64,000 bases of DNA, taken from positions 4,706 to 68,705 of IMG/VR virus record IMGVR_UViG_3300027819_000011; one strand, 5' to 3'. The notes beneath the pieces are model-generated. The model was not told where the DNA came from, made no database searches, and saw only the letters and a list, made by a program, of their open reading frames with translations. The DNA comes from a virus (lineage: Duplodnaviria > Caudoviricetes). The position numbers were made by a program, and so were the translations under genes. Below, piece by piece: positions 4,178 through 13,098 of this stretch (positions are counted from its first letter, which is position 1; the number at the start of each line of letters is the position of its first letter).

Positions 4178-5170
4178 TTAGTCAGTACATGCCGCTTCAT
4201 ACACCGCCATCCAAGAATCGTTAAGGATAACAGTACCTTGCAGCGTTTTCCATCCAATCGACCCTCTCTGCCCAAGGGGATCTCCGCCGCGTGGGGTGTT
4301 GGGATTCAACACCATCGGCGTAATGGCGAACTTGCCCTTCAGTGCGATAACGCCATAGGCGTCGCGCCCGAAGTACATTACCGGGTAAACATCGCAGTTC
4401 GTCCCGGCAGTCGTGAGTTTTCCGGTCGTGGTCGCTGATCCGCCATCCTCGTAGGGCGAAAAAATGGTTGAGGTCAGATACCGCACATGCTCGCAGGCGC
4501 CGACTTCGGTTTCCCACTTCGGCATATTGCCGTAATCCACAACTGACGTAAATCCGGTCATGCTGCGGATGTCGGTCTCAAGATCGGTATGGGTCACGCC
4601 GACATAGGCCGGAAGAATGGATTCCTGGTTGAAAGCCGGAGTGGATTTTACGATCTGTGTGATGAACCCGGCCTCCTGCCGTTTGAGCGAACGGACTATT
4701 TTCCGCTGGTCGGCGCGAGAGATCACGGCCACGACAGATGTGCGGCCCGCCACGGAATTACTATAGAAAACATTACTACACGCCTTGAGCACATCATACC
4801 GATTCTTCTCCACGACTTTGGCGGCCTGCTCACCGACGATCCCCATGGATTCATGCTGCACCGCGTCCTCGTGGGTGTCGGCAATAATGTCGGTAATTTC
4901 CACAAAGTCGCCGTCCTGCGCGAGAGTTACGCTAACATCCGTAGAGGTAAGCTTTTTGCCCGGAGGGGTCACGCCTTCGGTAAGGCGCGTTCCGGTAGTT
5001 GCCAGGGCGTTGTACCGCCTGAATTTCATCGACGTTGTTTTGTTGCCGGGAAGGGACTTGCTCTGGCCGAATTTTTCCAAGCACAGATAGGGCATCGCCC
5101 GTTTGAGCAATTCCACGACTACGTAGGCCGCAGTCCTGGGCGAGATGTCTCCATAAACTGTTGCTGCCAT
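4178..5170 (-). CDS. Major capsid protein, N4-gp56 family
   Basis: YGDISPRTAAY...KFGQSKSLPGNKTTSMKFRRY...LTEGVTP...DVYPVMYFGRDAYG...GGDPLGQRGSIGWK are hallmark N4-gp56-type motifs. Confidence 0.93.
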   Translation of the reverse strand: MAATVYGDISPRTAAYVVVELLKRAMPYLCLEKFGQSKSLPGNKTTSMKFRRYNALATTGTRLTEGVTPPGKKLTSTDVSVTLAQDGDFVEITDIIADTHEDAVQHESMGIVGEQAAKVVEKNRYDVLKACSNVFYSNSVAGRTSVVAVISRADQRKIVRSLKRQEAGFITQIVKSTPAFNQESILPAYVGVTHTDLETDIRSMTGFTSVVDYGNMPKWETEVGACEHVRYLTSTIFSPYEDGGSATTTGKLTTAGTNCDVYPVMYFGRDAYGVIALKGKFAITPMVLNPNTPRGGDPLGQRGSIGWKTLQGTVILNDSWMAVYEAACTD

Positions 5171-9418: not shown

Positions 9419-11731
9419 CTAATATCCTGTAATCCCGACACTTGGCCGGTACTCCATCTTCTTGAATTGTGCCATGAAGCTCTTGTATCGTTTGTCCGAT
9501 TCTTCTTTTGCTCCTATATACATAGCAAGATATTGCAATGAATCGGCAATATGAGAACTAAAATTTTTTTCAGGAGCGGCCTTGTATTCTTCTGTAATTT
9601 TGCTTTTTAAATCTTTTTCGTAATGATAGCCGCCGTTCATAGCTCTTCTTAAATGTTTACACTGAGGGGATAGTACAAACCCCGGTTCTCCCTTCCAGTT
9701 TTTATTGAGAAATTTATCTACGGCATCAAGTCTTGCAACCATATTATTTGTATGTGCAGGCACTATATCGCTTAATCCAATTTCCTGACTATGTAAAATA
9801 TCAAAACACGTATCTTCGCTTGTCGGATTGCGGTTCGTTCCCGACATGTCTCCAAAACCAACGACCCTCATACCATAATATTTTGCTCTTAACCTCGGAA
9901 GAACTTGATTTTCTACAAACGGTCTAAACAAAGAACCCTCAGAAACTATTTCATCAATAATTCGCAATTGCCCCAGGGGAGTAATTTGTCCGATAGAAAC
10001 AGCCGGAGTCAACCCAAAATCCCAGCCCGTTATTAAATCCAATCCTTTTTCTGGTTCCAATATATGGGGCGCAACATGATAACCATCGCTGAAATTGCCA
10101 AAAACAGGTCTCCCCATCAAAGTAAAACCATATTGCCCATGTATATATACCCTGACATACATGGCATCTTTGCCCTTGGCCAGGTCGTTATAATAATTCT
10201 TTGCAAGATGTTTTGTGTTTTCGGCGTGAACAGAGAGCCCAGATGGCTGCTTAAATCCCTTCCAGTTATCGGGCTTTATAATTTCATTCATCTGATAAAT
10301 ATAGCTTCCTTCCTCTGGCGGATTAGTATCCATTATTATTCCTGCCCAGGTTGCCCATCCATCGCGCTCTGAAGGGTAACGATTTATACGGCCATCCATC
10401 GCCACTATGATTGCCTTGGGAATTTCACGTGCCTCGTTAAACCATGACCCCGTAAGTTCAAGTGAAAGAAGGTTTGATACCTGGTCTGGACGGTCGAGAG
10501 CACGAAACATAACTTCAATATGAACGCCGGGGAACTTGGTGATAAAATATGTATGATCTGTAACGCGATATTCCCCAAAAATAGAGGGAGGAAACCAGTC
10601 ATGGAAAGTTTTTATCGTCGTGTCTTTTAGCTGCCCGTATGAGTTTCTCACAACCGCCCACCTGGTACGCCTTATACCATCAGGAGACGGTGTCTGCTCA
10701 TGCGCCCTACGGATGATTTCCATGACCATGGCGCTCGATTTCCCAGAGTTGTGGTGGATCGTCCCGTCAGCCGTTACATAATTATTTGTATCCCCTACCT
10801 GCATATCCCAATAAATTTCCTTGACAGAAAGCCTGGTAACGGATAGAACAGTCCTATCGGATAGGGAGGGAGGTAAATATGAATGAAAAAACTGATAAAG
10901 TAATTTCTTTATATGATGGGAAACTTTCGTCTGTAGAGGTTGCCGCAATGGTCGGATTCTCGCCGCGACACGTGAGGAAGATAGCGAAAAAGTACAATCT
11001 TGATCGCTTGCATTGTGGTGCACAACCTCATGATAAGAACCACCAATTTGTTTCGGGTAGGCGTATTGACCCAGATGGATATGTCCTGGTAACGTGTCCG
11101 TCAGATCATCCATACGCACGCCAAAGAACAAACCGAATGGTGAAGCTAATATATGAGCATAGGCTGGCTGTGGAGCACAAGATCGGACGATATTTGCTTC
11201 CCGAAGAAGTTGTTGACCATATCGACACGCTAACCTTGCATAACGCACCAGATAATTTAAGATTCTTTTCTGGAAACGGAGAACACCTTCACGAAACGAT
11301 ACAGGGAATTCCGAAAAAAATCTCCCTGAGCGGGAAGCAGAATATCCGCCTAAAATATCACCAGCCCGAAGGGTGGAAACGAGTTGATATTTATTATCAG
11401 CGCAGAAAACGCGGTGATGTCCGGCTGCGTCAAATTCTCCTTGCGGCGTCACGACTCGGTATAGATAGTCCATACCTTTTGGGAACGACTTACTGGCTAA
11501 AGAAAGCTGGAATTTTCCCACTGACTGATTCCACGATAGAACGCGCATTGGCTGAGTTATATCAGCGATGGGAAGCGGACCTCGCTCAGTAAGAACCAAG
11601 GTGCTCCCGGCAATACACCCAAATGGTCCTTGTACGCAGCGCATCCTCGTATTATCCAAGGCAAACTTCCGCAAAGTCGGCGCATCCGAATAATCGTACA
11701 AAACCTGAAATGCCTTCTTTGCTTCCGCCAT
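9419..11731 (-). CDS. terL: Terminase large subunit precursor interrupted by an intein (770 aa; about 480 aa after splicing)
   Basis: Split Walker A VQGPFG|SGKS, 'RWAVVRN', Walker B 'WFNEAREI', 'MDTNPP', nuclease 'GWDFGLTPA' and 'SHIADSLQY'. Confidence 0.95.
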   Translation of the reverse strand: MAEAKKAFQVLYDYSDAPTLRKFALDNTRMRCVQGPFGCIAGSTLVLTERGPLPIADITQPMRVLSWNQSVGKFQLSLASKSFPKGMDYLYRVVTPQGEFDAAGHHRVFCADNKYQLVSTLRAGDILGGYSASRSGRFFSEFPVSFREGVLRFQKRILNYLVRYARLACRYGQQLLREANIVRSCAPQPAYAHILASPFGLFFGVRMDDLTDTLPGHIHLGQYAYPKQIGGSYHEVVHHNASDQDCTFSLSSSRVAARIRPLRQPLQTKVSHHIKKLLYQFFHSYLPPSLSDRTVLSVTRLSVKEIYWDMQVGDTNNYVTADGTIHHNSGKSSAMVMEIIRRAHEQTPSPDGIRRTRWAVVRNSYGQLKDTTIKTFHDWFPPSIFGEYRVTDHTYFITKFPGVHIEVMFRALDRPDQVSNLLSLELTGSWFNEAREIPKAIIVAMDGRINRYPSERDGWATWAGIIMDTNPPEEGSYIYQMNEIIKPDNWKGFKQPSGLSVHAENTKHLAKNYYNDLAKGKDAMYVRVYIHGQYGFTLMGRPVFGNFSDGYHVAPHILEPEKGLDLITGWDFGLTPAVSIGQITPLGQLRIIDEIVSEGSLFRPFVENQVLPRLRAKYYGMRVVGFGDMSGTNRNPTSEDTCFDILHSQEIGLSDIVPAHTNNMVARLDAVDKFLNKNWKGEPGFVLSPQCKHLRRAMNGGYHYEKDLKSKITEEYKAAPEKNFSSHIADSLQYLAMYIGAKEESDKRYKSFMAQFKKMEYRPSVGITGY
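10821..10849 (+). promoter_or_regulatory. Sigma70-like promoter antisense within the intein, upstream of the HNH ORF
   Basis: TTGACA(10821-26)-17 bp-TAGAAC(10844-49), then GGAGGT RBS (10869-74) and ATG 10879. Confidence 0.6.
10879..11592 (+). CDS. HNH homing endonuclease encoded antisense, wholly inside the intein
   Basis: N-terminal HTH (LSSVEVAAMVGFSPRHVRKIAKK), 'GRRIDPDGYVLV', HNH_3-type 'YEHRLAVEHKIGRYLLPEEVVDHIDTLTLHNAPDNLRFF'; strong RBS. Confidence 0.88.
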   Translation: MNEKTDKVISLYDGKLSSVEVAAMVGFSPRHVRKIAKKYNLDRLHCGAQPHDKNHQFVSGRRIDPDGYVLVTCPSDHPYARQRTNRMVKLIYEHRLAVEHKIGRYLLPEEVVDHIDTLTLHNAPDNLRFFSGNGEHLHETIQGIPKKISLSGKQNIRLKYHQPEGWKRVDIYYQRRKRGDVRLRQILLAASRLGIDSPYLLGTTYWLKKAGIFPLTDSTIERALAELYQRWEADLAQ

Positions 11732-12415
11732 CTATTCCGCCATATTGCAAAACTCGACGCTTGTAAGTTTCGTCTGCCTTGACAACCAATTCCGCAGGCC
11801 GTCTGGCCGTCTGGCCTGGTACTCAAGCCGGTGGTTAAGGTGAATCTCAATCCCCATGTAGTCCACACGGGGCAAAACCGTGCAGGGGTACAGGACTTCA
11901 TATTCCATGCCCTCCACATCCATCTTGAGAAACCGGCACCTGTCTATCCCGTAAAGGTCAAATATTTCGTCAAGCCGCTTGACCGATATGGGCTGACGGT
12001 AATGGTGATCCGGGTTGAATTCGCATAGAGACGTTGAGCCTCCGGAGTGGTCTTTCGATACATTCACAGTAGCCGTCATCTCCCCCGGCTTGCCAACTCC
12101 GATATTGTAGCACGATATGTTTTCGCAGGCGTTCAGGCCGACGTTGTGCATGAGCTGCGTAAAAGTGCGCGGCACCGGCTCCAGGGCGATAACTCTGGCC
12201 TGCGGAAACAGCTTGGCCATCAAGATGCTGAACATGCCCTCGTTGGCGCCGATATCCAGGATAACGTCGCCTTTGCGAAACTCGATATTTTCCTTCAGCA
12301 CGCAGTAGTTGTCCCCGAACACCTCTTTAATTAAGTCCTGCGCGTCGATGCTGGGGTGAAAATAAAAGTCGTGGTCCCTGAACCGGTGAACAATGATGTC
12401 CTCAACCTCTCCCAT
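11732..12415 (-). CDS. FkbM-family SAM-dependent methyltransferase
   Basis: 'VILDIGANEGMFS', 'VIALEPVP', 'FLKMDVEGMEYEVL' FkbM motifs. Confidence 0.9.
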   Translation of the reverse strand: MGEVEDIIVHRFRDHDFYFHPSIDAQDLIKEVFGDNYCVLKENIEFRKGDVILDIGANEGMFSILMAKLFPQARVIALEPVPRTFTQLMHNVGLNACENISCYNIGVGKPGEMTATVNVSKDHSGGSTSLCEFNPDHHYRQPISVKRLDEIFDLYGIDRCRFLKMDVEGMEYEVLYPCTVLPRVDYMGIEIHLNHRLEYQARRPDGLRNWLSRQTKLTSVEFCNMAE

Positions 12416-12426
12416 ATCGTCTCCCT

Positions 12427-13098
12427 CTAAACGGATTCCGCTACCCTCATTAACTGTTCCGGCGTGTCGTTTCTCCCCGCCGCCTGTGCTTCCGTGTTGC
12501 CCTCATAAGCCCCGCTGTCCGGGTCAATGGCGTTCCTGATCTGCTTCATGTCGATGGTCTTGTCCTCGCCTTCACATGGGAAAAACTTCTTCTCGTCTTC
12601 CAGGCCCTTCAAAACCACGAAGAAATTCTGTGTCTGAGGACCGCCTCCAGGGCCTTCCCCCGACTTCCTGATGCTTGCCGCCACGAGGCTGGTTTCCACC
12701 TTCACCAACTCTTTCACCATAGACTTGAATTCGGCATCGGACTTCATGAGTTCAAGCAGGCGGGAACGGCCTTTCTTGCCGTTTGGACCAATGGAAAAAC
12801 GATAGGCATGCCGTAGGTCTTGAAGCATCTGGTAGGCGAGTTTAACGTCACCGTCGGGTTCTTCTGTCTTGGGTTTTGCTGCTTGGGTTGCTGCCTTTTC
12901 CGGCTTCGGGTTGTCGGGGCCGTGTTCGGCTGCCTTGTTAGCCGCGGCCAACCTTTTAGCGGCTCTTGCCGCCTGCGCTTTTTTCAGATTTACCAGGCGT
13001 TTCTCTTTCCAGGTCAAGTCCTTCTGGATTTTCTCCGGGTTGAAGTTGTCGGTGATTTCGGCGTCCTTGTAGGGACGGCCTCCGAGACGGGTGGTCAT
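12427..13098 (-). CDS. Putative terminase small subunit
   Basis: Basic N-terminus, helical core, two genes upstream of TerL; positional inference only. Confidence 0.45.
   Translation of the reverse strand: MTTRLGGRPYKDAEITDNFNPEKIQKDLTWKEKRLVNLKKAQAARAAKRLAAANKAAEHGPDNPKPEKAATQAAKPKTEEPDGDVKLAYQMLQDLRHAYRFSIGPNGKKGRSRLLELMKSDAEFKSMVKELVKVETSLVAASIRKSGEGPGGGPQTQNFFVVLKGLEDEKKFFPCEGEDKTIDMKQIRNAIDPDSGAYEGNTEAQAAGRNDTPEQLMRVAESV

Follow-up and report, generated by a model that had tools for sequence, protein, structure and literature searches.

What kind of element can occupy the P-loop codons of a phage terminase gene and leave both strands of the same DNA open for translation? This question is raised by a stretch of 64,000 nucleotides from a virus of the class Caudoviricetes (IMG/VR record IMGVR_UViG_3300027819_000011, positions 4,706 to 68,705), which we call the window and whose coordinates are used throughout. 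In it, the gene of the terminase large subunit (TerL) is interrupted by an intein, and the opposite strand of the intein carries a complete gene for a nuclease with helix-turn-helix (HTH) and HNH domains. The first-pass annotation had described this gene as a self-contained cassette, equipped with a promoter and a ribosome-binding site of its own, and every feature that it listed was found where it had been placed. It had also proposed that homologues be compared for both open reading frames (ORFs), the promoter, the ribosome-binding site and the ratio of non-synonymous to synonymous substitutions (dN/dS) on each strand. Both ORFs turned out to be conserved, in about 155 loci, and the promoter and the ribosome-binding site keep their positions in the relatives. 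We propose, with a probability of roughly 85%, that a two-strand homing element, made up of a class-1 intein and an antisense HTH-HNH endonuclease, occupies the P-loop codons of terL at this locus.

A class-1 intein splits the Walker A motif of TerL

The TerL precursor ORF (9419-11731, minus strand) codes for 770 residues, namely an N-extein of 38 residues (11618-11731), an intein of 290 residues (10748-11617; TerL residues 39-328) and a C-extein of 442 residues. The N-extein ends with GPFG, the first half of the Walker A motif, and the intein begins with Cys1 and ends with IHHN before Ser+1. The insertion splits the Walker A motif, or P-loop, as GPFG/SGKS (the slash marks the insertion point here and below), exactly where the first-pass annotation had placed it. 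The C-extein shares 35-40% identity with annotated phage terminase large subunits, in alignments that begin at residue 328 or 329, the latter being the +1 Ser. The match of the TerL ORF with the terminase large subunit family phrog_979 is weak (E 2.3e-4).

The residues expected of a class-1 intein are all present: the Cys1 nucleophile, the His of block B, the Asp of block F, the His-Asn pair of block G and the +1 Ser. Across 53 aligned inteins, no variation is seen at C1, H68 (block B), D271 (block F), H288, H289 or N290, and the +1 residue, Ser in the window, is Ser, Thr or Cys in the relatives. The N-terminal splicing lobe, with blocks A and B, is all-beta (residues 1-95; 11333-11617), and its invariant columns cluster in residues 1-68. 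The C-terminal lobe, with blocks F and G, comprises residues 250-290 (10748-10870), and its upstream part also serves as the predicted promoter and 5' untranslated region (5'UTR) of the HNH gene. Between the two lobes lies a stop-free middle region (residues ~96-249; 10871-11332).

We modelled the intein with AlphaFold2 from the 53-sequence alignment. Model confidence (pLDDT, for predicted local distance difference test), averaged over blocks of ten residues, is 90-98 for residues 1-90 and 91-97 for residues 251-290, and it is below 50 at residues 143-246. In Foldseek, the model matched mini-inteins with E-values of 1.7e-7 to 1e-5 and target-normalised template modelling (TM) scores of 0.84-0.87, among them the Mtu RecA splicing domain (3ifj; TM 0.87, root-mean-square deviation (rmsd) 1.9) and Npu DnaB (4o1r; TM 0.84). 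The conserved residues and the model support a splicing-competent type of intein. In the intein frame, Pfam gave Intein_splicing alone, with a weak score, and no nuclease model, in agreement with the initial description of a frame devoid of endonuclease motifs.

The antisense gene encodes an HTH-HNH endonuclease

The ORF of 237 codons on the plus strand (10879-11592) had been read as an HTH-HNH protein, and profile searches point the same way. Over its full length, the protein matches phrog_10730, annotated as 'HNH endonuclease', with an E-value of 1.7e-52, and its score with Pfam HNH_3 (25.7 bits) lies above the curated cut-off of 24.8. The N-terminal HTH (residues 1-41; 10879-11001) gives sub-threshold matches with Pfam HTH_29, HTH_23 and HTH_28. 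It is predicted to form a three-helix fold that resembles the GcrA DNA-binding domain, Lrp and the HTHs of resolvases (Z 5-6 in VIA-align).

The HNH (beta-beta-alpha-metal) nuclease core corresponds to residues 47-142 (11017-11304). When the domains were compared one by one with VIA-align, its nearest structure was I-HmuI (1u3e), with a Z of 7.3 and an rmsd of 3.7 over 82 residues at 22% identity. Foldseek gave the same match a probability of 0.99 with a weak E-value (0.09), and the whole-chain model found nothing at E <= 1e-3 in Foldseek. Residues D113, H114, H121, N122, N126, N133 and H136 do not vary among 27 sequences, and the window keeps every one of them.

The core is followed by a C-terminal helical domain (residues 169-237; 11383-11589), encoded on the opposite strand of the N-terminal lobe of the intein. 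The AlphaFold2 model of the protein has a mean pLDDT of 83, and the ten-residue block means over residues 171-237 are 88-97. In VIA-align this domain has generic helical matches only, and Pfam searches with the HNH C-terminal domain and the intein N-terminal lobe taken separately found nothing. Some members of the family (P0123, P0145 and L166:2704-3696 (+)), of 299-331 residues, have a duplicated N-terminal HTH before the HNH core.

The two-strand layout is conserved and is not a chance ORF

A search of a large protein database with an E-value limit of 1e-5 returned 552 HNH homologues. When viral contigs were scanned for similar loci with the window HNH protein as a single query, nothing was found, and an alignment-based scan of IMG/VR identified 80 loci at 50-66% identity, the nearest relative being 66% identical. 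The loci were picked by HNH similarity alone, and the TerL frame played no part in the choice. In all 80, and also in Pseudoalteromonas phage PHS3, Pectobacterium phage Ymer and the window, an open TerL ORF on the opposite strand encloses the whole of the HNH ORF. The enclosing ORFs of the 80 loci are 550-1127 residues long, and at Walker A they have intein boundaries of the form G/C...HHN/(S or T). All loci share one relative frame, with codon positions 1, 2 and 3 of the HNH gene opposite positions 1, 3 and 2 of the intein.

A second scan of IMG/VR, with distant members of the family, gave at least 329 confirmed HNH-relative stretches. The layout and the relative frame were identical in 75 of the 75 kept loci that could be analysed, which brings the total to about 155 phage contigs. 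Two groups of cultured phages also have this layout, one being PHS3 and the other the Ymer group of Pectobacterium phages together with Dickeya phage Setonix.

We examined chance and codon bias as the origin of the open frame by permuting the synonymous codons of each HNH ORF, with the protein and the codon usage fixed, and counting stops in the intein frame. For the window copy, 7.4 stops are expected and only 0.05% of the shuffles leave the intein frame open, and the other two antisense frames contain 9 and 11 stops. In the family, none of the 55 non-redundant copies has a stop in the intein frame, against 7.2 expected; 0.07% of the shuffles are open, which corresponds to a P(open) of ~7e-4 per copy, and each of the other two antisense frames contains about nine stops. 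Thus, the TerL frame is actively kept open across the nuclease gene, and a chance ORF or a codon-bias artefact is ruled out by this test.

Gene callers admit one strand only at such a locus, with the result that TerL is truncated or the nuclease is missed. PHS3 is annotated with a 391-residue TerL fragment and a separate HNH gene, and Ymer with a 754-codon ORF called 'hypothetical protein' and no HNH gene. In both phages, a single TerL ORF runs antisense through the HNH gene. TerL is a standard marker in phage taxonomy.

Selection differs along the element and between its strands

We determined nucleotide diversity from 55 representatives of less than 90% nucleotide identity and dN/dS from 56 pairs at 78-96% identity. 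Over HNH codons 1-150, which face intein residues ~247-97, the HNH frame has a diversity of 0.45-0.71 at position 3, well above the 0.12-0.41 at position 2, an amino-acid identity of 0.40-0.81 and a dN/dS of 0.14 (dS 0.745). In the intein frame opposite these codons, amino-acid identity is 0.19-0.47 and the apparent dN/dS is 2.7. In this part of the element, protein-level selection acts on the HNH frame alone, and the intein frame is a filler constrained only against stops. The first-pass annotation had read the middle of the intein as antisense filler, and the values of pLDDT and dN/dS bear this out.

The picture is different over HNH codons 181-225, opposite intein residues ~67-22. Diversity is 0.16-0.28 at all three codon positions, and amino-acid identity is similar in the HNH frame (0.62-0.74) and in the intein frame (0.64-0.72). 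Over HNH codons 166-230, dS of the HNH frame is 3.4-fold lower (0.745 to 0.217) and dN of the intein frame is 3.2-fold lower (0.278 to 0.087). This N-terminal lobe overlap is truly dual-coding: the constraint on each strand suppresses synonymous change on the other. As had been claimed for the last ~80 HNH codons, the end of the nuclease gene overlaps the N-terminal splicing lobe, and our comparison shows both frames to be constrained; HNH codons ~150-237 (~85 codons) face intein residues ~97-9, and a folded and selected domain is encoded on each strand of positions 11333-11592.

The last 22 intein codons (10748-10813), which lie outside the HNH ORF, are ordinary and very strongly constrained coding sequence, with a dN/dS of 0.007 and a saturated dS. 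A dN of 0.50 calculated for the C-extein was discarded, as it came from an ungapped comparison. As a natural example of dual coding on opposite strands, the element is unusually clean: selection can be measured strand by strand, and a predicted promoter is embedded in coding sequence.

A predicted promoter and a ribosome-binding site lie within the intein

Upstream of the HNH gene, we found a predicted sigma-70-type promoter (10821-10849, plus strand), with the -35 hexamer TTGACA (10821-10826), a 17-nucleotide spacer and the -10 hexamer TAGAAC (10844-10849). It is followed by the Shine-Dalgarno sequence GGAGGGAGGT (10865-10874, plus strand), which includes GGAGGT (10869-10874) and ends 5 nucleotides before the ATG at 10879. 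In an alignment spanning from the intein C-terminal boundary to the HNH start, the family has the consensus cTTGACa-N17-TAnnAT at a fixed position. Column conservation is 0.80, 0.98, 0.87, 0.84, 0.78, 0.85 and 0.53 along cTTGACa and 0.69, 0.95, 0.33, 0.44, 0.98 and 0.93 along TAnnAT. For this predicted promoter, the pattern is the information profile expected of sigma-70 promoters.

At least 10 of the 12 consensus positions are matched by 47% of the representatives, against 1.3% of control windows of equal length taken on the plus strand opposite the coding region of the TerL C-extein. The 5'UTR block TCGGATAnGGAGG is conserved in the alignment, and a GGAGG-like motif immediately precedes the HNH start codon in nearly all loci. 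Within the hexamers and the short 5'UTR (GGnCCnnTCGGATAnGGAGG), the third codon positions of the intein are conserved and the first positions are variable. This reverses the signature of a coding sequence, and there is therefore constraint at the nucleotide level. Early expression of the nuclease, independent of TerL, is plausible, as is some damping of TerL by convergent transcription.

The cassette moves between terminases and decays

The intein of the window aligns with that of Ymer, and the exteins do not. With PHS3, the joined match continues into the C-extein, at 27% identity. The junction contexts of the family include GPFG/SGKSS, GPVG/SGKSV, GPVG/STKTT, AGFG/TGKSQ, GGAG/SGKSH and GGNR/...SGKT. 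Among the TerL relatives that are 62-77% identical to the window C-extein, 27 are uninterrupted at the P-loop, with GPFG joined directly to SGKSS, and five have the intein. The extein most similar to that of the window (78% identity) has no intein. In a tree of 104 exteins, the presence and absence of the intein need at least eight changes (gains or losses), at least four of which are forced by well-supported branches. One comparison was rejected as evidence of horizontal transfer, namely the low extein identity (25%) between the window and L003: TerL proteins of the L003 type have ~1125 residues, probably with a second insertion within the region compared.

A search with the N-terminal lobe retrieved inteins of 288-300 residues, together with inteins of 222, 211 and 146 residues. 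The last is a mini-intein (locus L247) that has kept both lobes and lost the middle, and with it the nuclease, while the TerL frame is intact. On its antisense strand, a remnant of the HNH C-terminal domain can still be read without interruption, which marks the mini-intein as a recent deletion derivative. The intein is absent from its closest TerL relative (76% identity). For the HTH-HNH core, one free-standing relative was found, in podovirus MW202481; free-standing relatives of the HNH core alone occur in phages of Mycobacterium, Streptomyces and Bacillus. As read from these sequences, the states of invasion, maintenance, degeneration and loss are the set expected of a homing element.

The same data bear on the possibility that the HNH protein is not a homing enzyme but assists the terminase in packaging as an accessory nuclease, like the HNH proteins encoded beside the terminase genes of cos phages. 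Its gene is physically inside a terminase gene, and HNH genes beside terminase genes are common in phages according to PMC3592412. However, the HNH gene is present only with the intein, and the closest TerL relatives of the window lack both at the Walker A site. Moreover, the mini-intein derivative has dispensed with the nuclease and kept its TerL frame, the cassette moves between unrelated TerL families, and an HTH, an I-HmuI-like core and an additional domain make up the architecture of a site-specific homing nuclease. A role in packaging is thus very improbable, and we retain the homing element as the explanation.

We also scanned 185,579 prokaryote species genomes, and five matches to the cassette were found, all on contigs of metagenome-assembled genomes (MAGs). 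Four of these contigs (L242-L245) bear the conflicting labels actinobacterium, Thermoplasmata, Marinobacter and Phycisphaerae. The matches probably represent phage contigs binned into MAGs and give no host information; among the scanned genomes there was no sign of prophage carriage in isolates.

How the element may work, and what weighs against it

In the proposed homing element, the two strands would have complementary tasks. On the minus strand, the N-terminal (1-95) and C-terminal (250-290) lobes of the intein would assemble into one fold and splice themselves out of the TerL precursor, and the rejoining of GPFG with SGKS would restore a functional Walker A motif. Between the lobes, ~150 residues would form an unstructured, stop-free linker devoid of protein function. 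The plus strand would provide a free-standing endonuclease, of HTH-HNH composition and I-HmuI type. The sigma-70-type promoter embedded in the coding sequence immediately upstream of block F of the intein would drive its transcription, and a GGAGG site of its own would serve for translation. In a mixed infection, the nuclease would nick or cut intein-less terL at or near the P-loop codons, and repair from the intein-bearing allele would copy the whole cassette. Cleavage of the element-less allele is suggested by the patchy distribution and by the transfer between TerL families. The intein would thus render the insertion harmless, and the nuclease would render it mobile.

Several observations weigh against this proposal, in the intein, in the nuclease gene and in the presumed target. 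In the intein, block B reads AGHH rather than TxxH, although its His is itself invariant, and the score with Pfam Intein_splicing is below the curated cut-off (E 1.2e-4; 22.3 vs 35.8 bits). In the nuclease gene, the -10 hexamer of the window, TAGAAC, has a C at position 6, which is found in three of the 55 copies, T being present in 51 of them. A consensus scanner that requires T at this position misses the promoter of the window. The HNH protein of the window also departs from the family at three nearly invariant positions, with H31 for Y, H51 for G and T117 for G. Finally, the presumed target of the nuclease is drawn solely from the logic of homing.

The sub-threshold Pfam score would fit an insert that is not removed by protein splicing; the open frame would then be incidental, and TerL would either lack function or be translated from an internal start. 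Splicing of the window intein is indeed a prediction. However, the low score is explained by the long filler that divides the domain, and the structure-based comparison does recover the HINT fold, with TM scores of 0.84-0.87 to solved mini-inteins. The Ala at the Thr position of block B, in the context GEFxAAGHH, is a tolerated variation around the invariant H68. In addition, the open frame is under selection in ~155 independent loci, all the catalytic residues of the intein are invariant, and the dN/dS of the last 22 intein codons is 0.007. The insert also divides the essential P-loop, and an internal start would yield a protein without GPFG. We regard an unspliced insert as scarcely credible.

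The points on the nuclease gene concern the window copy rather than the family. Its HNH gene could be a weakly expressed or decaying one, with an intein that still splices and inefficient homing, in a family that is active overall. The absence of the T kept at position 6 of the -10 hexamer in 51 of 55 relatives, together with the substitutions Y31H, G51H and G117T, suggests that this copy may be poorly expressed or less active than most of its relatives. Its nearest HNH relative is a distant one (66% identity), and the deletion derivatives indicate that decay does occur in the family. In contrast, the HNH ORF of the window is full length, has no frameshift or stop and retains all the invariant catalytic residues, and it is preceded by a perfect -35 TTGACA, a 17-nucleotide spacer and a strong ribosome-binding site. 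We therefore consider decay of the window copy unlikely and keep the two-strand homing element as the preferred interpretation.

Origin of the overlapping C-terminal domain

The dual-coding overlap raises the question of which of its two domains is the older. We compared a profile of the HNH C-terminal domain with 1.84 billion representative proteins and obtained 44 matches. In all the full-length ones (220-303 residues) the match is at the C-terminus, and the others are shorter pieces. The nine matching sequences that we read are all HTH-HNH proteins of the same design. In divergent members of the family, the HNH gene stops at one of three places, namely opposite intein residues 59-83, in short nucleases of 166-186 residues that are limited to the classical insertion site, opposite residues 28-48, or opposite residues 2-23, in long forms of the window type.

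These sequences lead us to lean, slightly, towards a birth of the C-terminal helical domain (~169-237) by antisense overprinting, in which the nuclease ORF would have been extended stepwise over the ancient N-terminal lobe of the HINT domain and living intermediates would have survived. The HINT lobe is ancient and widespread, the helical domain is limited to the HTH-HNH family, and the two share the same DNA; the helical domain is therefore most likely the younger partner. Under overprinting, some 200-260 nucleotides would now encode two folded and selected domains on opposite strands. If this is true, the family offers a dated, family-wide case of de novo birth of a domain antisense to a functional one, within a selfish element that has cultured carriers (Ymer and PHS3).

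More generally, the family supports an order of events in which the splicing domain came first and the nuclease invaded it later. The stages that survive are free-standing HNH relatives, short antisense HNH genes at the classical site, long overlapping forms, partial deletions, a mini-intein and empty sites. As cultured carriers exist, splicing, the timing of expression and homing are open to bench work.

Other insertions in terminase genes and neighbouring genes

One relative of the window TerL (70% identity to its C-extein; L084:1360-2313 (+)) has a different and unrelated insertion of ~318 residues at the exact same P-loop site. It follows GPFG, starts with PLSHDT and ends with ...FITGN, after which comes SGKSS. 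No antisense HNH gene and no Pfam match were found in this insertion, which may be an intein with an in-frame nuclease or one of a class-3-like type. The G/S junction of the P-loop looks like a hot spot for several inteins.

Many relatives of the window TerL have further large in-frame insertions elsewhere in the protein, in ORFs of 800-1160 residues (L003, L027, L060, L116, L120, L123 and L125-L128), and the matches of relatives to the window C-extein break near residues 247, 259, 287 and 403. In L078, a second intein-like end, ...ALVHN/C, is found near residue 1067. Given these further insertions and this second end, some terminase genes appear to carry two or three inteins.

Within the filler of the intein, inside the TerL ORF, lies a terminator-like hairpin with a T-run (11322-11337, minus strand). 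A single site of this kind in 2 kb is no more than chance would give (shuffle mean 1.9). Directly upstream of TerL and abutting its start codon, we found the gene of an FkbM-family methyltransferase (11732-12415, minus strand; Pfam Methyltransf_21, E 3.5e-19). The small terminase subunit is usually expected at this position. The next ORF upstream of the methyltransferase gene (12427-13098) has no Pfam match and could code for that subunit.

Comparison with known systems

The first-pass annotation had regarded an antisense nuclease cassette inside a splicing-competent intein as rare. This rarity was overstated: the present family is common, with 552 HNH homologues and at least 329 IMG/VR stretches, and antisense nucleases of inteins have already been published. 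LAGLIDADG genes antisense to inteins have been described in Synechocystis DnaX and a Chloroflexus SpoVR-like protein; bioRxiv 10.1101/2025.01.02.630785 attributes them to Gorbalenya 1998 and Gogarten 2002. The citing preprint itself describes actinophage inteins, including inteins of TerL, with antisense LAGLIDADG and VSR-like nucleases and with out-of-frame nucleases of the endonuclease VII type, and gives HNH as an in-frame type only. In its proposal, such elements originated when a free-standing nuclease gene invaded an intein. It was the only report retrieved by a full-text literature search that combined intein, anti-sense, homing endonuclease and HNH, and the published description of the Ymer phages is silent on inteins.

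The element of the window resembles these published inteins in being splicing-competent by prediction and located in a phage TerL, in having an in-frame middle without a recognisable fold and an opposite-strand nuclease that matches a known fold, and in its patchy distribution, which suggests ongoing invasion. In contrast with the published antisense types (LAGLIDADG and VSR-like), its nuclease is of the HTH-HNH type (HNH_3). The hosts also differ: the window family belongs to phages of Gram-negative bacteria and to environmental phages, whereas the preprint deals with actinophages. Furthermore, in the window family ~85 HNH codons lie over the N-terminal splicing lobe with both frames selected, and a conserved promoter and ribosome-binding site are documented.

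Other systems share single aspects of the element. I-HmuI, the HNH homing endonuclease of the group I intron of Bacillus phage SPO1 (PDB 1u3e), has the same modular design of a nuclease and helical DNA-binding modules, but it is encoded by an intron on the sense strand and its HTH is C-terminal, whereas in the window protein the HTH is N-terminal and the C-terminal helical domain is specific to the family. The fractured genes reported by Dassa et al. 2009 (PMC2677866) also combine an intein and a separately expressed free-standing homing nuclease in one mobile unit. In those genes, the host gene and the intein are broken in two and trans-splicing is involved, whereas the window intein is one continuous frame across the nuclease gene.

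Mini-inteins such as Ssp DnaB, Npu DnaB and the Mtu RecA splicing domain superpose on the lobes of the window intein (TM 0.84-0.87). They lack the additional, unstructured linker of ~150 residues, which is there only because the opposite strand is a gene. The insertion in the methylase of phage ShiLan (PMC11855218) likewise hides an HNH gene in another frame of an in-frame insertion. However, it has no splicing domains and its HNH gene is in another frame of the same strand, whereas the window has a bona fide intein with an antisense gene. The general arrangement of the element was already known; what is new is the type of nuclease, the host range, the real overlap with a splicing lobe and the documented conservation of a predicted promoter.

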